Source: Smithellaceae bacterium
Lineage (GTDB): Bacteria; Desulfobacterota; Syntrophia; Syntrophales; Smithellaceae
DNA: 64,000 nt
Direction of reading: 5' to 3'
NCBI GenBank assembly: GCA_028693285.1
Contig: JAQUVQ010000009.1
Location: 165 to 64,164 of the forward strand
The position numbers were made by a program, and so were the translations under genes. The notes under the pieces are model-generated. The model had not been told where the DNA came from. It made no database searches and saw only the letters and a program-made list of their open reading frames with translations. The first letter of the stretch is position 1. The number at the start of each line of letters is the position of its first letter. Below are positions 6,432 to 60,174 of this stretch, in pieces.

Positions 6432-7655
6432 CTATGTGAAATGAACGGCCAGCATGGAAAAGTCGTCTTCCAGGATTTTCTGGCCGTGGTAGTCCTGCAT
6501 CTTCAGGTACAGAGCGTCAATGTCTTCGCCCGCTTCCATTTTGTGCTGCAGCAGATATTCCCCCAGTTGATCCAGCGTCCACATGCTGCCTTCGGGAGGA
6601 TCCACTTCGTAAACGCCGTCGGAAAAGACGTAAAGATTCGCTCCGGCCGGAACAGTGACGGAACTTCCCTGATACGCGCTTTCCGGAAGGCCGCCGATGA
6701 ACAGGTTGTTCGTCATGAGTTTGGTCAGGGTTCCTTCTTTGGAGATGAGAAACGCGGGCGGGTGGCCGCCGCTGGCAAAGCGAAGCTCCCGGGTCCGGCG
6801 GTCGAAAACGCCGTACCAGATGGTGAAGTAAAGGTTGTTGTGATGTTCCATTTGAAAGGCGTTGTTGAGCGCCGCCAGAACCCGGTCCGGCGAATGGAAA
6901 TCCGTGTCGGGCAGCGTCTGGGAGCGGATGGCGTTGAAGGCGGAAACGGAAAGCAGTGCCGAGCCGACCCCGTGCCCGCAGACGTCCAGCAGGTAAACGG
7001 CAAAGGTGTTTTCATCGAGCCAGTGGTAGCCGAAGCTGTCGCCGCCCAGTTGGGCGCTGGGGAAAAAGCGCCATGCCGTCGTGATCGTCGGATCAGACAG
7101 CGGGGGCGGCATGAGCGACACCACGTAGTCGGCCGCCTGGGCCAGCTCCGCGGCCAGCGCCTGCCGGCTGGCGAGCAGCGCGGCATAGGCTTCGTTTCGC
7201 TGCAGCAGGTTGATATAGCCCCGGGAATGGTACCGGATGCGGGCGACGAGTTCGATGCGGTCGGGAAGCTTCACCAGGTAGTCATTGGCGCCGAGCGCGA
7301 AGGCGTCCGCTTTCGTGACCGCCTCTTCCTTGGAAGATAAAACGATCAGGGGCACGTCCTTGAGCTGGGGATGGACGCGGAAAAATTTCACCAGCGTCAG
7401 GCCGTCGATGTCCGGCATAATCAGGTCCTGAAGGATCACCGTCGGCTGAAACGAGGCGGCGGTGGGGATGGCCTGCGTGGGGTCCTGGCAGAACTGAAAA
7501 ACGATGTCCGTTTCCGGCTCGAGCATTCTTTTCACCGCCGCGCCGACAATCGCCTGATCGTCGATGAGCAGGACCTTGATTTTGTGGTCCGTCAGTATGG
7601 TTGCCGGGTCCCGGCTTCCGGACGGGGCGGGGTTTTGATTTTCTTTTTCGGTCAT
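6432..7655 (-). CDS. response regulator fused to PP2C/SpoIIE-type phosphatase (RsbU-like)
   Basis: Canonical receiver (LLIDDQ, LQDLIMPDIDG, VLSS, YLVKLP) followed by a PP2C domain (GGDSFGY, LLDVCGHGVGSAL, SDGVYE). Last gene of the che operon, with a 4-nt overlap with cheB. Confidence 0.87.
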   Translation of the reverse strand: MTEKENQNPAPSGSRDPATILTDHKIKVLLIDDQAIVGAAVKRMLEPETDIVFQFCQDPTQAIPTAASFQPTVILQDLIMPDIDGLTLVKFFRVHPQLKDVPLIVLSSKEEAVTKADAFALGANDYLVKLPDRIELVARIRYHSRGYINLLQRNEAYAALLASRQALAAELAQAADYVVSLMPPPLSDPTITTAWRFFPSAQLGGDSFGYHWLDENTFAVYLLDVCGHGVGSALLSVSAFNAIRSQTLPDTDFHSPDRVLAALNNAFQMEHHNNLYFTIWYGVFDRRTRELRFASGGHPPAFLISKEGTLTKLMTNNLFIGGLPESAYQGSSVTVPAGANLYVFSDGVYEVDPPEGSMWTLDQLGEYLLQHKMEAGEDIDALYLKMQDYHGQKILEDDFSMLAVHFT

Positions 7656-51410: not shown

Positions 51411-51486
51411 GGGCCTATAGCTCAATTGGTAGAGCCACCGGCTCATAACCGGTAGGTCCCTGGTTCGATTCCAGGTGGGCCCACCA
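51411..51486 (+). tRNA. tRNA with CAU anticodon (elongator Met, or Ile2 if lysidinylated), CCA encoded
   Basis: Manual cloverleaf: acceptor gggccta/tgggccc, D arm gctc-aattggta-gagc, anticodon arm accgg-cuCAUaa-ccggt, T arm cctgg-ttcgatt-ccagg, then A-CCA. Confidence 0.9.
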
Positions 51487-53398: not shown

Positions 53399-53608
53399 CT
53401 AGACCTGGATAAGGCTCATCAGCCGTTTGATCCAATCCAGCCCCGTCTCCGTAAAGAGTGCGACCAGAATCAAAAAGAGAATGAAGACCGTAATCAACTC
53501 GGCATTGCGGACTTTGGGATATTTTCTTTTTACGGCAAACAGGAGAATGCCGCCCGCCGCCAGTACCACCAGGTGCAGAAAGGGGAAAAGCTTTAAAAAG
53601 GCATCCAT
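53399..53608 (-). CDS. small two-TM membrane protein, hypothetical
   Basis: 69-aa ORF with two hydrophobic helices. No family recognised. Confidence 0.4.
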   Translation of the reverse strand: MDAFLKLFPFLHLVVLAAGGILLFAVKRKYPKVRNAELITVFILFLILVALFTETGLDWIKRLMSLIQV

Positions 53609-53674: not shown

Positions 53675-53708
53675 AAAAAAGGCCGAATCGAAATTCGGCC
53701 TTTTTTTT
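53675..53708 (-). terminator. rho-independent terminator after the Cache-protein gene (bidirectional geometry)
   Basis: aaaaaa-ggccgaat-cgaa-attcggcc-tttttttt. Confidence 0.8.
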
Positions 53709-53724
53709 CATGAATCAACGCTGC

Positions 53725-55038
53725 TTATTTGTCTTCATCGTCGTCATCATTCAGCCCCGACAAATCCCCTTCGGAACCTTCCGGAACTTCCGACTGAATG
53801 GAGCGGGAAATTCCGCGAACCAGAATCAGCATGATGAAGAACAGGATCACCATGGCCACGATGAGCACCAGAATGACCGTTGCCGTCCATGCCTTGGATT
53901 CCTTCTCGATGTTCTGAGAGACCTTCATGGCCGCTTCGTTGTACTTCTCGACTTCGACCCCCAGACAGACCCATCCAAAACCGGCGGGCTCAGGAATGTT
54001 TGACGCGTAAAACTTGATCGGCGCATAGGCGACAAACTTGGTCATCCCGAATAATTTATACGCCTTGATCCCCGTTTTGCCTTCCGCCGTCTCTTTCGCG
54101 AGAGCCGTTAAATTGGGATCCAGGAAACCGGCCTGAATAATGTTCAAGGCATCGGCGCCCTTATCCGTCAGTTCTTTCACGTTTTGCTGCGTGATGATCG
54201 GAACCGGCGTTCCGTCCGGATTCAGGCCTACGATATGGTAATCGTTCGGATGCGCGATCGCGTTGCCGCGGTAATCGAACATGTACGCGTAATTGCCGGA
54301 GGATGCTTCCGTTTCAAACACCCGCTCCGCCTGCGTGGGAATGAGCTGGTCGGTGATCTGGCCCAGGTGACGGTAGTCCAGGGACAGCACGATGATCCCG
54401 GAAAAACCTTCCTGATTGAAAACCGGTGTTGCAAAACGGACAACACCGTTGAATCGTTCTCCCTTATCGAAGGCCGCTTTATTCACATACCAGCCGGTAA
54501 CCGGAGAAACGTACACTTCGCCCCGGTTCAGATTTTTTGTTCGGACGAAATAATCTTCATTTTTATAGGTGGTATTGGCCGGCTTGCTCACGTCAACCAG
54601 TTTTCCCGCCGGCACCGCCTGACCGTCGGCAATTTTAATTCTTTCGTTGCCGTTTTTGTCGATCAGGGACATTTCCTTGTACAGCGGTGTCAGCACCTGC
54701 TGGACCTTGCCGTCTTTCTTGACCCAGAGCGGTGCTTTATTTTCAGCAATAAACTGCTTGTAGACGGATTCTGTCGAGGGAATAATGGTTGCGACCTGCA
54801 AATCCTTCTTGCTTTCCATGAGTAAGTTGGCAACCTGATTTGCAGTGTTGATGGCCCTTGCTTTAATATCTTCCTGGGATTTGACATCCAGAACGTTAAC
54901 GGCCCTTTCTTTTATGGTAACCCCCAGTTTAAACATGCCGTTAGCGATTAAAAACGCCATCAGTGATAAGGGGATTACAATAAGCAGGAAGAATACGCCT
55001 GCAACAGGTAATGACTTCTTATCTTTAGATTGTGACAT
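53725..55038 (-). CDS. double-Cache ectodomain membrane protein with no output domain and an acidic tail
   Basis: TM, then a roughly 330-aa Cache-like ectodomain (YFVRTKNLNRGEVYVSPV, VVRFATPVF, GIIVLSLDY, YAYMFDYRGNAIAHPN), a second TM, and a 38-aa tail ending in LNDDDDEDK. Confidence 0.8.
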   Translation of the reverse strand: MSQSKDKKSLPVAGVFFLLIVIPLSLMAFLIANGMFKLGVTIKERAVNVLDVKSQEDIKARAINTANQVANLLMESKKDLQVATIIPSTESVYKQFIAENKAPLWVKKDGKVQQVLTPLYKEMSLIDKNGNERIKIADGQAVPAGKLVDVSKPANTTYKNEDYFVRTKNLNRGEVYVSPVTGWYVNKAAFDKGERFNGVVRFATPVFNQEGFSGIIVLSLDYRHLGQITDQLIPTQAERVFETEASSGNYAYMFDYRGNAIAHPNDYHIVGLNPDGTPVPIITQQNVKELTDKGADALNIIQAGFLDPNLTALAKETAEGKTGIKAYKLFGMTKFVAYAPIKFYASNIPEPAGFGWVCLGVEVEKYNEAAMKVSQNIEKESKAWTATVILVLIVAMVILFFIMLILVRGISRSIQSEVPEGSEGDLSGLNDDDDEDK

Positions 55039-55089
55039 TATAATTTCCCCCTAACCTTGGTTAATTTTGTAGTGAACTTCTCAATAGCA

Positions 55090-55467
55090 TTAACCCAAGA
55101 AGAAAGGCTTGAAGGGGTTGGCGTACAATAAGATCAGTGCGATAACCAGAGCGTAAATGGCGATCGATTCGGCCATGGCCATGCCGACCAGCATCACCAT
55201 CATGATTTTGCCCTGAACGCCGGGGTTTCTTCCCACTGCCTGGCAGGCGCCGTTTGCCGCGTTGCCGATGCCCGCGCCCGCGCCGATGGCGCCAAGACCG
55301 ATGGCAAGACCCGCGCCGATCATGGCGCCGACGACAAAGATCACTTTAATGTAGGATTCTCCGCCCACCGGAATCGCATCCGCCGCGAAGGCAAACTGGC
55401 TCGAAAGCAGCAGAGCCGCTACCGATGTGAAGACCGTTAAAATTGTTTTTCCGTGTTTGTGTGACAT
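55090..55467 (-). CDS. atpE: F-type ATP synthase subunit c paralog with N-terminal signal-peptide-like extension
   Basis: GAIGAGAGIG...AVGRNPG loop, ion-binding helix MAMAESIAIYALVIALILLYANPF. N-terminus MSHKHGKTILTVFTSVAALLLSSQFAFA-AD. RBS AAGGAG. Confidence 0.85.
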   Translation of the reverse strand: MSHKHGKTILTVFTSVAALLLSSQFAFAADAIPVGGESYIKVIFVVGAMIGAGLAIGLGAIGAGAGIGNAANGACQAVGRNPGVQGKIMMVMLVGMAMAESIAIYALVIALILLYANPFKPFFLG

Positions 55468-55575
55468 TATCTGACTCCTTTCATGACAAATGGTTTATTT
55501 GTTTCTTTTTTGCGCTGCATAACACATTAATCATTGCTGCGCAAAGAAGAATTAACATCAATCGGCTCGACGCTA

Positions 55576-55592
55576 ATGCATGAGATGTGCCA
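55576..55592 (-). promoter_or_regulatory. sigma54 (-24/-12) promoter TGGCAC-N6-ATGCAT upstream of the atpE paralog
   Basis: The minus strand reads TGGCACatctcaTGCAT. GG and GC have the canonical spacing (consensus TGGCACG-N4-TTGCW). About 100 nt upstream of the ATG at 55467. Confidence 0.65.
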
Positions 55593-55659
55593 TGGTTTCA
55601 ATTGAGAAAATTTGTTTTTTGCCGCGGCGCGGGCGGCGCCCGTCCGTTTCGGCGGGCTG

Positions 55660-55673
55660 TTCAATGCATTGAA
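55660..55673. promoter_or_regulatory. perfect 14-bp palindrome TTCAATGCATTGAA upstream of the sigma54 promoter
   Basis: Read directly from the sequence. Lies about 70-95 bp upstream of the -24 element. The partial motif TTGAAATTT recurs at 55880-55888. Confidence 0.35.
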
Positions 55674-55772
55674 ATTTCTGTTCGTTTGGGTTCGGCGCCG
55701 GCGCGAAAGAACGCAGGGGGGAATGACTTTGGTTTTCCGGCGGGTCGCGCAAGAGGGTGCGTTTCAGCGCGT

Positions 55773-55815
55773 CGTTTAATGTTTTGTTCAATGGCCTGCC
55801 ATAAAACATTAAACG
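55773..55815. promoter_or_regulatory. 13-bp perfect inverted repeat CGTTTAATGTTTT-N17-AAAACATTAAACG, candidate enhancer (UAS)
   Basis: Arms at 55773-55785 and 55803-55815, about 180-240 bp upstream of the sigma54 promoter in the divergent intergenic region. Confidence 0.4.
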
Positions 55816-55963
55816 GGCTGTAGCGTGAAGGGAGAGACGCCTTTTGCAAATCGGGGTGAAAAACGTTTTCTGATATTTCAGTTGAAATTTTGGATCAATG
55901 TCGTTACGATGCCCAAACCTGTGCCAAATCATGGGACATCATTACGAATGACAAAGGATCGTT

Positions 55964-56137
55964 ATGCAGGAGCTTTTAACCGTAGTTACGTACCCGATTA
56001 TCTGGCTGGTGTGTTCTTACCTTTTAAAAATTGAAAGCGGCCTGGCAAAACTGCTGATCTCGCTCACGGCGGCGGTTCTGGTTTATGTTTTGTACGGTTT
56101 GTGGCAGTCTCAAAAAGAAAAACAAAAGGAAAATTAA
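55964..56137 (+). CDS. possible 57-aa membrane micro-protein upstream of the sensor kinase
   Basis: ATG 55964 to TAA 56137, translating to MQELLTVVTYPIIWLVCSYLLKIESGLAKLLISLTAAVLVYVLYGLWQSQKEKQKEN (two hydrophobic segments). Ends 6 nt before the kinase GTG. Shorter than the shortest ORF listed in the track. Confidence 0.3.
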   Translation: MQELLTVVTYPIIWLVCSYLLKIESGLAKLLISLTAAVLVYVLYGLWQSQKEKQKEN

Positions 56138-56143
56138 GATTCA

Positions 56144-58714
56144 GTGGCATTGCTGAGAAACTCATACCGATTTCTGCGCCAGGCGTTCAGTCTGCGCATC
56201 TGGTTGACCAGCCTCATTGTTATTCTGCTGATCCTTCTGTTGGCTCTGACCGTGAACAACGCGCGGGAAAAGGAAATGGCGGATTTGTTCAGCCGCCAGC
56301 AGTTGGCGTCCGCTCAAAACGCCTCCGCCCGCATGACGGAAATTCTTTCGCAGGTTGAAAGAAACGTCGCTCTGTTCTCCTACTTTGATCCCAACGGAAA
56401 AATTCTGTCGCCGAAAGATCACCGGGAAATCGAAATCCTTTATTCCGTTTGGGGAAAAACGATCGACGCCGTGCTGGTGTTTGACGCCCGGGAGGGCGTC
56501 CGGCGCGTTCTGTCGCAGGAGGCGCTGCCCCGCGTCAACCTGATCCCCCATTTCCGGATCCTGAAAAATCAGAAACGGCAATATTTAAGTCTGGCCCTGT
56601 CCGATGTTCGCGCAGGCGGCGCCCCGGCTTCCAGACAGGATTGGTATTTAATATGGGGGAATCCCATCTGGCGCGACCGCAATATTTTTGACGGCGCGTG
56701 GATGGTGTCCTTTTCACTGGCCGCGCTGGTCCATGCCGGAGAAAGGCAAATTCAGGAAAACCGGCTGGGAGACCTTTGGCTGATCGATGACCGGGGGCGG
56801 ATTGTCCTGCATCCGAATTCGCCCTACATCGGCAAGAACACCGGTGATCTAGTCCGGGACAGCCGGGGAAACGCAATCACCCTTTCGCCGGCAGGAGGAA
56901 GACTCATTGACGCGAGGGTTTTACGGCAAAGCGGCGCTTTGGAAAGAAGCGTTATTGCCTACTATCCGTTTCAGGTTGCCGGGAACAGCTGGTCCGTCAT
57001 GGTGAGCGCTCCCTACGCCGAGGTCGTCGCTCCCGTGCGCACGACTTTTCTTTACACGATGTTCAGCGCATTTCTGCTGATGCTGATCCTGGTGGTCGCC
57101 GGCATCTTTTACGCGTTCCGGGAGGGAAGGCGATTGCGGATGCGGGAGGTGCAGGAGCGGCTGAAGGAGCGTGAGACCTGGCAGGAGAAACTGCTTCGGG
57201 AAAAGAAAACGATTGAAGGCATCATCGAAGGATCGCCCATTCCCAGCTTCGTGATCAACAAACAGCATCAGGTGATTCTGTGGAACAGGGCCTGCGTGGA
57301 GCTGACCGGGCAGTCGGCGGAAGACACGCTGGGGACGGACGGTCATTACCGGGCGTTTTACCCCGTCAAAAGGCCCATGGTGGCCGACTTGATCATCGAC
57401 AGCGACATCGACGCGCTCAACAAGTACTACAGCGCCAAAAAAGTCAAAAAATCGGAAAAGGTGCTGGGCGCCTATGAAGCCTACGATTATTACGAAAACC
57501 TCGGCGGCCGCAGCCGGTACATGTATTTTCTCGCGGCGCCGATTTATGACGAGGATGGGAACATCATCGCGGCGATTGAAACGCTTCAGGACATCTCCCG
57601 CGAGCAGGAGCTGACGCGCAGCCTGCAGGAATACGCCGAGACGCTGCAGAATGAACTCTCGGAGAACATCGAGCTCCGCAAAGAGATCGAAGGCCTGCTG
57701 AATTACATGCAGTCCATTGTGAAAAGCCTGCCGGATAAAATCTATGAGCTGGACAAGGACGGCGTCATCAACTTTATCAGTTGGGGGCTGAAGAAACCCA
57801 AAAATGAATTTCGTGGAAGGCATTTTCTGGAATTTGTCGCGCCGGAGAACGCGGATTTTGTCGTTTCCAAGTGGGAAGACGCCAAGCGGGGAAACTACTC
57901 CCCCTATGAGATTGAAACGGTGGCCCAGGACGGGCGCAAGGTTAATTTAATGGTGACGACGTCCCCGGTGATCGGGAGCGACCATTACATCCTGGTGCAG
58001 AGAGACATTACCGAGTTCAAGAACCTGGAAAAGAAGCTTTACGACAGCCAGAAGCTCGCGGCGCTGGGGCAGCTTTCCGCCGGCATTGCCCATGAAATCC
58101 GCAATCCGCTCTCGTCCATCAAGATGAGCCTCCAGATTCTGGAAAAACGCATCAAGCCCGAAGGCAACGATCTGAAACGCTTCAAAATCGCGCAAAAGGA
58201 AGTCGAGCACCTCGAAGAGCTGGTGAACAACGTTCTGGTGTTTGCCAAACCGATGGAGCCCAAAATCGAATCGGTCGATCTTGCGAAAGTCCTGGACCAG
58301 GCGGCGGCTCTCTCCGAGCACATTATTCAGGATAAAAAAATTAATGTTACCCAGGACACCCGGGATGTTCCCGCGGTGAACGTGGATGTGGCGATGATTA
58401 CGGACGCTTTCGTCAACATCATCCGCAACGCGGTGGAGGCGATGGAGGACGGCGGCCACATTCACATTTACGCCCGCAGCATCGGATCCCGGCCGCCTTC
58501 CGTGCTGGTGGTCGTGGAAGACGATGGCTGCGGCATCGACGATGCGGACATGCCCCATCTGTATAATCCGTTTTTCACAAAGAAGAAATACGGGACGGGC
58601 CTCGGCCTGTCGCAGGTCCTGAAGATCGTGGAAGTGCACCAGGGGAAGCTGGAGATCATCAGCGAGAAAGGCAAGGGCACGAAAGTTTGCGTGACATTAC
58701 CCTGCAATAAATGA
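56144..58714 (+). CDS. sensor histidine kinase (periplasmic Cache-like domain, two PAS, HisKA, HATPase)
   Basis: TM, roughly 260-aa ectodomain, TM, PAS x2, H-box SAGIAHEIRNPL, N/G boxes (IIRNAVEAM, DDGCGI, GTGLGLS). Confidence 0.9.
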   Translation: MALLRNSYRFLRQAFSLRIWLTSLIVILLILLLALTVNNAREKEMADLFSRQQLASAQNASARMTEILSQVERNVALFSYFDPNGKILSPKDHREIEILYSVWGKTIDAVLVFDAREGVRRVLSQEALPRVNLIPHFRILKNQKRQYLSLALSDVRAGGAPASRQDWYLIWGNPIWRDRNIFDGAWMVSFSLAALVHAGERQIQENRLGDLWLIDDRGRIVLHPNSPYIGKNTGDLVRDSRGNAITLSPAGGRLIDARVLRQSGALERSVIAYYPFQVAGNSWSVMVSAPYAEVVAPVRTTFLYTMFSAFLLMLILVVAGIFYAFREGRRLRMREVQERLKERETWQEKLLREKKTIEGIIEGSPIPSFVINKQHQVILWNRACVELTGQSAEDTLGTDGHYRAFYPVKRPMVADLIIDSDIDALNKYYSAKKVKKSEKVLGAYEAYDYYENLGGRSRYMYFLAAPIYDEDGNIIAAIETLQDISREQELTRSLQEYAETLQNELSENIELRKEIEGLLNYMQSIVKSLPDKIYELDKDGVINFISWGLKKPKNEFRGRHFLEFVAPENADFVVSKWEDAKRGNYSPYEIETVAQDGRKVNLMVTTSPVIGSDHYILVQRDITEFKNLEKKLYDSQKLAALGQLSAGIAHEIRNPLSSIKMSLQILEKRIKPEGNDLKRFKIAQKEVEHLEELVNNVLVFAKPMEPKIESVDLAKVLDQAAALSEHIIQDKKINVTQDTRDVPAVNVDVAMITDAFVNIIRNAVEAMEDGGHIHIYARSIGSRPPSVLVVVEDDGCGIDDADMPHLYNPFFTKKKYGTGLGLSQVLKIVEVHQGKLEIISEKGKGTKVCVTLPCNK

Positions 58715-58782
58715 CGGATCGTTTTCGAAGAGGGGACTGAAACTCCGAAAGAAAGCGCGCCGCGGCGCAGGCAGCGAAGGTT

Positions 58783-60174
58783 ATGACTATGGCAAGTATT
58801 CTGGTGATTGATGACGATGCATCCATTGCGGAAACGCTGGATTTGTATTTAACCGAAGAGGGATACAGCGTCCGGACGGCGCTGACCGGCACCGACGGAC
58901 TGAACAAATACGTCCAGGAGCCTTCGGACGTGGTCATTCTGGACATTCGCCTGCCGGACGTGGACGGGTTCGCCGTCCTGGAAGACCTCAAGGAAGAAAA
59001 TGAAAACGTCAAGGTGATCATGATCACCGCTTTCCACGACATGGAAACGACGATCAACGCCATGAAGGGCGGCGCCTTTGACTATATTCACAAGCCGGTC
59101 AACGTGGACGAATTGGATCTGGCCATCCGGAAAGCCCTGAAATCCCTGGAGATGGAGAAGAAAATCGACGGGCTGCTGATGGAGCCGTCGCGCAGTTTCC
59201 GGGTGGGGGACATCATCGGGACCGGCAACGAGATGCGGGAAATTTTCAAGACGATCGGCACCGTATCCCAGAGCCGAACGACGGTGCTGATTTACGGAGA
59301 AAGCGGCACCGGCAAGGAATTGATCGCCAAGGTGATTCACAACAACACTTCTCCGGACGAACCGTTTATCGCCGTGAACTGCTCCGCCATCGTGGAGACG
59401 CTTCTGGAATCGGAGTTGTTCGGCCACGAAAAGGGGTCCTTTACCGGCGCCATCGCGCGCAAGCTGGGCAAGTTCGAGCTGGCCCGGTTCGGCACCGTGT
59501 TCCTCGACGAAATCAGCGAGATGTCGGTGAATCTCCAGGCGAAGCTTTTGCGCGTTCTGCAGGAGATGGAATTCGAGCGCGTCGGGGGCAAGGACAGGGT
59601 GAAGGTCAATGCCCGCATCATGGCCGCCACGAATAAAGACCTGCGGGCGATGGTCAAGGAGGGGAAATTCCGGGATGACCTGTTTTACCGTCTGAACATT
59701 GTTTCCATCCACCTGCCGCCGCTTCGCAGCCGGCGCCAGGACATTCCGCCTTTGATTGATTACCTGCTTTCGAAAATCAATCTGGATCTGCATAAAAAAA
59801 TCATCGGCGTTTCCGGCGAAATGATGGAGAAGTTTATGACGTATCCCTGGCCGGGAAACGTTCGCGAGCTGGAGAATCTGCTGGTCCGGGCGTGCGTCAT
59901 CGCCAAAGGCCAGGTGCTGGGCGTCGGAGATTTTCCGGAGCTGGGCAAGGATTATGAGGCGCTCCCGGATAAGAAAGACACGACCGGGGAGGTGTTCACG
60001 CCGGAAGAGCCGGGCAAATTTTTGACGCTGGATCAGATTGAAGAACGTTACATTCGCAAGATCATCAAGGAAACCAGCAAGAACAAGGGGGAAATCTGCG
60101 AGACGCTCGGCATTTCCCGCCCCACGTTCGAACGCAAGCTGGAAAAATACGGCATCACCTTTGAACGGGACTAA
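58783..60174 (+). CDS. sigma54-dependent response regulator (NtrC/AtoC family enhancer-binding protein)
   Basis: Receiver (ILVIDDD, ILDIRLPDVDG, HKP), AAA+ domain (GESGTGKE, GSFTGA loop, FLDEI, RDDLFYRL) and a Fis-type HTH (ICETLGISRPTFERKLEKYGI). Confidence 0.93.
   Translation: MTMASILVIDDDASIAETLDLYLTEEGYSVRTALTGTDGLNKYVQEPSDVVILDIRLPDVDGFAVLEDLKEENENVKVIMITAFHDMETTINAMKGGAFDYIHKPVNVDELDLAIRKALKSLEMEKKIDGLLMEPSRSFRVGDIIGTGNEMREIFKTIGTVSQSRTTVLIYGESGTGKELIAKVIHNNTSPDEPFIAVNCSAIVETLLESELFGHEKGSFTGAIARKLGKFELARFGTVFLDEISEMSVNLQAKLLRVLQEMEFERVGGKDRVKVNARIMAATNKDLRAMVKEGKFRDDLFYRLNIVSIHLPPLRSRRQDIPPLIDYLLSKINLDLHKKIIGVSGEMMEKFMTYPWPGNVRELENLLVRACVIAKGQVLGVGDFPELGKDYEALPDKKDTTGEVFTPEEPGKFLTLDQIEERYIRKIIKETSKNKGEICETLGISRPTFERKLEKYGITFERD

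Follow-up and report, generated by a model that had tools for sequence, protein, structure and literature searches.

A probable extra ATP synthase c-subunit gene of Smithellaceae, paired with a Cache protein and a candidate sigma-54 promoter

The window analysed here, a stretch of 64,000 nucleotides (64 kb) from a Smithellaceae bacterium (assembly GCA_028693285.1, contig JAQUVQ010000009.1), carries a two-gene minus-strand operon that encodes an F-type ATP synthase c-subunit and an output-less Cache protein. The operon diverges from genes for a small membrane protein, a sensor histidine kinase and an NtrC/AtoC-type response regulator (Table 1). The c-subunit gene is called atpE2 (type-2) in this work, and the canonical atpE of Syntrophales is called type-1. 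It is very probable that atpE2 is an extra copy and not the sole atpE of its genome. The model that we favour, at a probability of about 0.5 for the whole, is that atpE2 encodes an alternative rotor subunit, made in response to a signal together with an accessory co-sensor. A sequence-only reading of the same DNA had proposed the operon with its sigma-54 promoter and clean terminator, the signal peptide of the c-subunit, the architecture of the Cache protein with its short acidic tail, and the lack of atpB or any other atp gene in the window; it had also held that this would not be the only atpE and that the regulon was not a described one. The genes were confirmed at the positions proposed, and such refutation tests as could be run were favourable, so that the reading is supported.

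The product of atpE2 scored above the cut-offs of PF00137 (67.1 bits, cut-off 24) and TIGR01260 (45.3 bits, cut-off 43.95). Its best NCBIfam model was PRK08482, the long epsilonproteobacterial c-subunit, and its NCBI name is ATP synthase F0 subunit C. The protein has an N-terminal signal peptide with an AxA site (predicted cleavage between AFA and AD), and the mature form starts with a short periplasmic stretch ending in (D/S)Y(T/I)K, a motif common to type-1. The hallmarks of subunit c (Gly-rich helix 1, polar loop and helix-2 Glu) were all present: helix 1 (GAIGAGAGIG, a GxGxGxG pattern), the loop (GRNPG) and helix 2 (MAMAESIAIY) correspond position by position to the chains from I. tartaricus, F. 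nucleatum, S. platensis and A. woodii. Type-2 proteins agree with ring-forming subunits in the loop RNPG(V)QGK and in AESxAIY of helix 2. The window protein is 98-99% identical to those of the related loci L001-L004 (90-92% for the kinase), and type-2 dN/dS values of 0.01-0.16 indicate strong purifying selection, which rules out a pseudogene or a decaying duplicate. Motifs, dN/dS and identity to L001-L004 together argue for a working c-subunit.

Two special subtypes of c-subunit were rejected. The Na+-binding subtype does not fit, as Ile occupies I. tartaricus positions 32 (Gln) and 67 (Thr) and of the signature only Glu65, Ser66 and Tyr70 are kept; because of the two Ile replacements, type-2 is likely to be proton-coupled like type-1. 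The N-ATPase c-subunit model (TIGR03322) gave 63.6 bits against a cut-off of 130.85, and there is no atpDCQRBEFAG operon at the locus. The strongest library matches to the c-subunit (P0241-P0259 and others) were rotor proteins of 230-1139 aa in which 3 to 15 c-subunit hairpins are covalently fused as tandem repeats.

In the canonical Syntrophales layout, a long signal-peptide atpE (type-1) faces asnC-hemL-gmd-fcl-atpZ-atpI-atpB; a signal peptide is thus not particular to type-2. A metagenome scan with an AtpB alignment found this type-1 block in lineages with AtpB 63-94% identical and a GC content of 40-55%. Two of the block-bearing lineages are Syntrophales metagenome-assembled genomes (MAGs), and the block is present in one UBA MAG also. 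The protein P0405 (52% identical to the window c-subunit) is encoded by such a stand-alone gene facing asnC-hemL-gmd-fcl-atpZ-atpI-atpB, with no c gene after atpB there, and the proteins of its contig belong to 90% clusters named Smithellaceae or Syntrophaceae by NCBI. The type-1 gene of L028 has a sigma-70-like promoter (TTGACA-N17) and no sigma-54 element. Given the type-1 block across Syntrophales contigs, the canonical atpE is therefore tied to the atpB region and the window gene is a different one. This unusual layout is fixed in L028/L038-L047, L051-L065, L129-L138 and L144-L146, where the type-1 atpE is transcribed against the direction of atpB, with 5-6 unrelated genes between them. 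Long c-subunits were found in normal operons too: the one in L033 (53% identical to that of the window) belongs to an atpZ-atpI-atpB-atpE operon, and a relative from Desulfobulbales, whose mature part is 64% identical, likewise lies in a normal atp operon (locus L036 is from Desulfobulbales).

A published gene table gives same-genome evidence. In the M82_1 MAG of Ca. Smithella cisternae, contig 463 carries atpCDGAH together with genes for two B subunits, atpB is 4_23, and 'ATP synthase subunit C' appears twice, as 4_31 and 437_33, on different contigs (PMC5606693, Table S9). There is one atpB and one F1 set, and the second subunit C was left uncommented by the authors (PMC5606693). Gene 4_31 fits the type-1 block, because eight genes separate atpB from this first c gene.

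Another explanation is that atpE2 is the sole housekeeping atpE, moved away from atpB as in Campylobacterota and Aquificota, phyla in which the long signal-peptide c-subunits are stand-alone housekeeping genes. The epsilonproteobacterial PRK08482 as best model and the NCBI name would fit this, as would the failure to find both types in one assembly and one atpZ-atpI-atpB locus (L064) with no c gene nearby. This explanation was rejected on the Syntrophales type-1 block and the two subunit C genes of M82_1. Each Syntrophales-like atpZ-atpI-atpB locus with enough upstream sequence has a type-1 gene, and the type-1 loci share their GC range (37-55%) and kinds of sample with the type-2 lineages; we regard a sole atpE as very improbable.

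Type-2 proteins are 52-55% identical to the Syntrophales type-1 proteins (about 45% of positions differ). On the packing face of helix 1, several x positions of the GxGxGxG motif that hold Thr or Leu in type-1 hold Ala in type-2, and Ala replaces Ile before the helix-2 Glu. An invariant Cys, specific to type-2, lies in helix 1 near the loop. Because the N-terminal architecture is common to both, the comparison suggests that type-1 and type-2 are old paralogues within one subfamily. A change in ring size is speculation drawn from the packing-motif substitutions. The bolder idea is that a signal makes Syntrophales change the gear of their ATP synthase, the alternative c-subunit, induced by the two-component system with its Cache co-sensor, giving a ring of different subunit number and a changed H+/ATP ratio; it is offered tentatively and we consider it doubtful. 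If true, such a shift would suit either the synthesis of ATP when the proton-motive force is very low, or the use of ATP to energise the membrane for reverse electron transport.

The same comparison bears on another possibility, a pure dosage effect, in which atpE2 would be an equivalent spare that raises the supply of c-subunits and leaves the ring unchanged, the Cache protein being an unrelated co-regulated sensor. The c-subunit is the most abundant subunit of the ATP synthase complex, and type-1 and type-2 agree in signal peptide, (D/S)Y(T/I)K motif, RNP loop, E-S ion site and a helix 1 of the proton type. However, an equivalent spare is hard to reconcile with the low identity between two types that are each tightly conserved within themselves, with differences that cluster in the helix-1 packing motif and beside the ion-binding Glu, and with a Cache pairing that is strict in every locus. 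Dosage only is unlikely in our judgement.

Conservation of the neighbourhood was analysed in a genome scan with the Cache protein (one genome per species), which gave 23 loci (L001-L023). Cache homologues numbered 791, the close ones being named Smithella, Smithellaceae, Syntrophales or Deltaproteobacteria. The c-subunit/Cache pair was kept in 19 of the 23 genome loci, and the divergent kinase and regulator in 17. In these 17 (L001-L015, L017, L018), the Cache protein is 95% to approximately 61% identical to that of the window (91-95% in L001-L005, which places the organism of the window in Smithella) and the pair diverges from the genes for the small ORF, the kinase and the regulator. L016 and L019 (60% and 52% Cache identity respectively) keep the pair and the sigma-54 element next to other neighbours. 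In L020-L023 (29-35%), the match is the N-terminal sensor of a complete kinase, with a double Cache domain (dCache) between two transmembrane helices (TM) and a HAMP domain (TM-dCache-TM-HAMP), followed by an NtrC-type regulator and with no c-subunit. The arrangement was repeated in further metagenome loci. Arrangement and sigma-54 element persist in orthologous loci down to approximately 52% Cache identity, and every type-2 locus examined has the c-subunit paired with the Cache gene.

Smaller genes are conserved with the module. The 57-aa ORF directly upstream of the kinase was present in 17/17 genome loci (51-96% identity) and is a called gene in metagenome loci; it matched no Pfam family. 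On the other side, 3' of the operon terminator, Smithellaceae loci have a 66-69-aa two-helix ORF (orthologous to the 69-aa ORF of the window), which is possibly associated with the module. Behind this ORF, several Smithellaceae lineages have an additional gene of the AtpZ family (PF09527 32-35 bits, cut-off 26.6; regions L006 10041-10295 and L165 3996-4523); the extra gene is missing from the window lineage, where rnpB is found instead. Its closeness may link the module to ATP synthase biology. The extra gene occurs although the canonical atpZ-atpI-atpB exists elsewhere in Syntrophales.

With the exception of this AtpZ-family paralogue, no linkage of the c-subunit gene to core Fo/F1 genes was found in the window or in any type-2 locus, and tblastn with AtpB, AtpD and AtpE of E. 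coli revealed no further atp gene in the 64-kb window. One may ask whether atpE2 acts outside ATP synthase, its oligomers forming, with or without the Cache protein, a separate membrane complex, for instance an ion leak or channel that responds to a ligand, or a sensor scaffold. The type-2 gene never adjoins a core F1Fo gene, its product has the type-specific Cys of helix 1, and in the predicted operons it is always co-transcribed with a two-helix membrane protein having an unusually conserved membrane helix. By contrast, the cytoplasmic RNP loop, which contacts the central stalk in known enzymes, and the entire ion-binding signature are kept as in working rotor subunits, and the extra AtpZ-family gene lies close by in several lineages. 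To our knowledge, there is no precedent for bacterial F-type c-subunits outside a rotary ATPase, and we find such a role quite unlikely.

The element assigned to sigma-54 upstream of atpE2 has its GG and GC doublets spaced as in TGGCAC-N5-TTGCA. At least one chance match to TGGCAYN6TGCW was found in 41 of 100 shuffles of the window, so the element is not significant from the window alone and its weight comes from the comparison. In 19/19 of the genome loci with a c-subunit, the core is invariant and located 95-126 nt before the ATG, and the flanks diverge; the element was found in L030 too. The inverted repeat upstream of it, which is a candidate activator site, is unique in the window, and 0/100 shuffles had a match even with 3 mismatches. 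It is present at equal distance in 11 related loci besides the window (among them L001-L008, L018 and L024), and in the Syntrophaceae-type loci, which are more distant, another conserved block takes its place. A palindromic block like CTCAAnnAATTGAG is found in Smithellaceae loci at the place of the second palindrome of the window, possibly the site of a bending protein or a second activator site. As to the kinase operon, TTGAAATTTT and the -10 block of its promoter are common to Smithellaceae-type and Syntrophaceae-type loci. Sigma-54 element, inverted repeat and sigma-70 element therefore make up the classic anatomy of an enhancer-dependent promoter facing a sigma-70-driven regulator operon. 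In L006 (approximately 6600-7100), an insertion of about 450 bp with two copies of a repeat of about 60 nt (GTCCCTGCCACC..GGTGGCGGGATAATTCGCTCTAAGATTTTCCGAGCAC) lies between the kinase-operon promoter and the upstream palindrome; it has no counterpart in any other locus and is possibly a repeat or a small mobile element.

The 5'-untranslated region (5'-UTR) of atpE2 has a conserved pyrimidine block (UUCUUCUUU / UUCCUCUUU), for which two pairings are possible, one with a purine run inside the region and one with the Shine-Dalgarno sequence GAAAGGAG. Because the minimum-energy folds of single sequences switch between both pairings among orthologous loci, they suggest that atpE2 could be under translational control. 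RNAalifold yielded no consensus across the orthologues. A known RNA family in the 5'-UTR or the intergenic region was rejected, since Rfam gave only sub-threshold, terminator-like matches.

The Cache protein scored 32.4 bits against the Pfam dCache_1 model, under the gathering score of 45 bits, and a sequence-profile search found no relative of it in the PDB. Its AlphaFold2 model had a mean pLDDT of 59, the membrane-distal module being confident and the proximal one weak. The top Foldseek matches of the model were all dCache domains (3LID, Mlp24, TlpA, Tlp3 and PctA; E 3e-10 to 1e-7, probability 1.0), which supports a predicted double PAS-like periplasmic fold between two membrane helices. As to the ligand, amino-acid-binding dCache domains have a conserved Arg/Trp/Tyr/Asp contact motif in the distal module; compared by eye, the stretch at that place reads NEDYFVRTKNL, without R-x-W-Y.

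Three observations concern the function of the Cache protein. Its nearest relatives outside its own family are sensor domains, and they belong to kinases encoded ahead of NtrC-type regulators. The partner kinase of the Syntrophaceae-type lineage lacks a periplasmic domain and consists of membrane helices with three PAS domains, yet the Cache gene is kept. Finally, the first membrane helix (TM1, VFFLLIVIPLSLMAxLIANG) is the best conserved segment, with a column identity of 0.90 compared to 0.76 in the periplasmic part (14 orthologues), which points to a contact inside the membrane. On these grounds we favour a role of the Cache protein as an accessory or split sensor that would work with the kinase, the 57-aa membrane protein, or both, an option which the sequence-only reading had listed and which has gained support. 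The Cache protein is not a copy of the kinase's own sensor domain, as BLASTP showed no significant similarity between the two.

The regulator scored above the cut-offs of Sigma54_activat (222 bits), Response_reg (101 bits) and HTH_8 (28 bits) and has the AAA+ loop GSFTGA in its translation, in agreement with the domain set of the NtrC family. It reached no equivalog cut-off (AtoC 461 against 714 bits), and the kinase was likewise below the cut-offs of the AtoS- and ZraS-like models (AtoS 246 against 646 bits).

Under the favoured model, a signal would lead the kinase to phosphorylate the regulator; the signal might be a periplasmic ligand sensed via Cache domains, a cytoplasmic redox or energy cue sensed via the PAS domains, or both. 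The regulator would bind the upstream inverted repeat and activate sigma-54 RNA polymerase. The atpE2 product would be exported and inserted through its signal peptide, and would build or join the rotor ring of the single F1Fo enzyme, beside or in place of the housekeeping type-1 subunit. Properties of the ring such as subunit number (the H+/ATP 'gear ratio') or stability could thereby change. Through TM1, the co-induced Cache protein would associate with the kinase or the small membrane protein, or with each of them, and by sensing a ligand in an accessory role would close a feedback loop. Sigma-54 dependence, control by this particular regulator and incorporation into the ring are steps that we infer from sequence comparison.

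Several points weigh against the model of an induced alternative rotor subunit. Both the entry of atpE2 into the F1Fo ring and a change in stoichiometry are predictions. Type-1 and type-2 were not found in one assembly (the MAG accessions compared did not overlap), so the same-genome evidence rests on the published M82_1 table. Tetranucleotide matching of type-1 with type-2 loci was dominated by GC content. At L064 (4321-5657), an atpZ-atpI-atpB locus with AtpB 57% identical to that of L028, there is no c-subunit within 15.6 kb. In L016 and L019, neither kinase nor regulator adjoins the pair, although its sigma-54 element is there, the sigma-54 match has no significance in the window taken alone, and the contact between the Cache protein and the kinase is suggested by conservation only. 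With regard to L064, a vapBC-like toxin-antitoxin pair lies directly upstream of its atpZ-atpI-atpB genes.

The features of the window are compiled in Table 1. All ORFs proposed earlier were present at their positions, and the ORFs and Pfam matches confirmed the divergent operons; the 57-aa ORF, the upstream inverted repeat and the sigma-70-like promoter had been overlooked. The stop of the c-subunit gene is 51 nt from the Cache start. The terminator consists of GGCCGAAU-UUCG-AUUCGGCC followed by U6 (-20 kcal/mol, z = -4.6, equalled by 0/200 shuffles); with an A-run on one side and a T-run on the other, it may terminate transcription from either direction. No rpoN was found in the 64-kb window. 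In L019 (UBA6087), rpoN, preceded by an ABC-transporter ATPase gene, lies approximately 5 kb downstream of the atpE2-cache pair. In the NCS2 permease, the Pfam domain stops at about residue 424-458, and the C-terminal extension of about 130 aa matches no family.

Table 1. Positions of the features in the 64-kb window.
Feature	Position	Strand	Basis or remark
atpE2 (c-subunit type-2), 125 aa	55090-55467	-	PF00137 and TIGR01260
TM-dCache-TM protein, 437 aa, output-less, short acidic cytoplasmic tail	53725-55038	-	fold model
Intrinsic terminator of the atpE2-cache operon	53675-53708	-	folding energy
Putative sigma-54 -24/-12 element, TGGCAC-N5-aTGCA, TGGCACATCTCATGCA	55577-55592	-	sole TGGCAYN6TGCW match in 64 kb
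5'-UTR hairpin of atpE2	55503-55551	-	conserved blocks; within 55465-55568
Palindrome TTCAATGCATTGAA between upstream inverted repeat and sigma-54 promoter	55660-55673	.	conserved block
Candidate upstream activator site, perfect inverted repeat TAATGTTTT-N17-AAAACATTA	55777-55811	.	~200 bp upstream of the -24 element
Sigma-70-like promoter TTGAAA-N17-TACGAT of the small-ORF/kinase/regulator operon	55882-55910	+	consensus scan
Two-helix membrane protein, 57 aa, first in the kinase operon	55964-56137	+	conservation
Sensor histidine kinase, 856 aa, TM-dCache-TM-PAS-PAS-HisKA-HATPase	56144-58714	+	Pfam; dCache weak
NtrC/AtoC-type response regulator, 463 aa, REC + sigma-54 AAA+ + HTH_8	58783-60174	+	Pfam
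Two-helix membrane ORF, 69 aa, 3' of the terminator	53399-53608	-	conserved near the operon in Smithellaceae loci
RNase P RNA (rnpB), class A, 334 bits	52966-53341	+	adjoins the downstream end of the module
tRNA-Met	51411-51486	+	after rpoD
NCS2 xanthine/uracil-type permease, 593 aa	60219-62000	-	Pfam

Ring size sets the number of ions needed per ATP and is usually regarded as fixed within a species. Smithella and other syntrophs live near the thermodynamic limit, and their enzyme must run in both directions. A conserved and separately regulated second rotor gene, if so used, would give such bacteria a natural genetic means of varying the coupling ratio, and one that is directly testable; it suggests that energy-starved bacteria may refit their ATP synthase as needed. 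Two further suggestions are a sigma-54 regulon whose target is energy conversion and a possible split sensor, its ligand-binding domain being encoded within the regulated operon. With regard to annotation, the name 'ATP synthase F0 subunit C' covers two distinct genes in Smithella genomes.

A limited literature search found no description of an orphan bacterial c-subunit under two-component/sigma-54 control with a Cache partner, which agrees with the proposal of an undescribed regulon, and among papers on atpE of Smithella or Syntrophus, or on 'atpE2', it found nothing on this module. The mixed c-ring of A. woodii (c1 + c2/c3; PDB 4BEM) resembles the present case in that one F1Fo is served by more than one c-subunit gene. 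Among sequences of solved structures, those of the 4BEM chains matched atpE2 best. The c genes of A. woodii all belong to the atp operon, c1 is a duplicated subunit with four helices that lacks one ion site, and the enzyme is Na+-coupled; atpE2, by contrast, encodes a normal hairpin that looks proton-type, and is an orphan gene with its own putative sigma-54 promoter. Among eukaryotes, Atp9-5 and Atp9-7 of Podospora anserina are described as two paralogous, structurally different c-subunit isoforms of one ATP synthase, expressed under different conditions (PMC4956034), and three distinct c-subunit isoforms are described as expressed and assembled in Trypanosoma brucei (PMC3542316). The Podospora genes are nuclear and developmentally controlled, and neither two-component/sigma-54 control nor a sensor partner gene is known for them.

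The long c-subunits of Helicobacter/Campylobacter and Aquifex (PRK08482) share with atpE2 the signal-like N-terminal extension and a GxGN-type helix 1. In those bacteria atpE is apart from atpB and is the sole atpE. Syntrophales differ, since their canonical type-1 is already a signal-peptide form and atpE2 is additional. The N-ATPase (TIGR03322) is likewise a second rotary-ATPase gene set in a genome, but it comes as a complete atpDCQRBEFAG operon, compared to the single c gene here. Systems of the NtrC/AtoC/ZraR type have the same REC-AAA+-HTH_8 regulator, upstream palindrome and -24/-12 promoter; they differ in that an ATP synthase subunit as the regulated product was found in no description. 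Lastly, accessory kinase sensors such as YycH/YycI, which act with WalK, offer a parallel for the second gene of the operon, as here the membrane protein encoded by the target operon could modulate the kinase.

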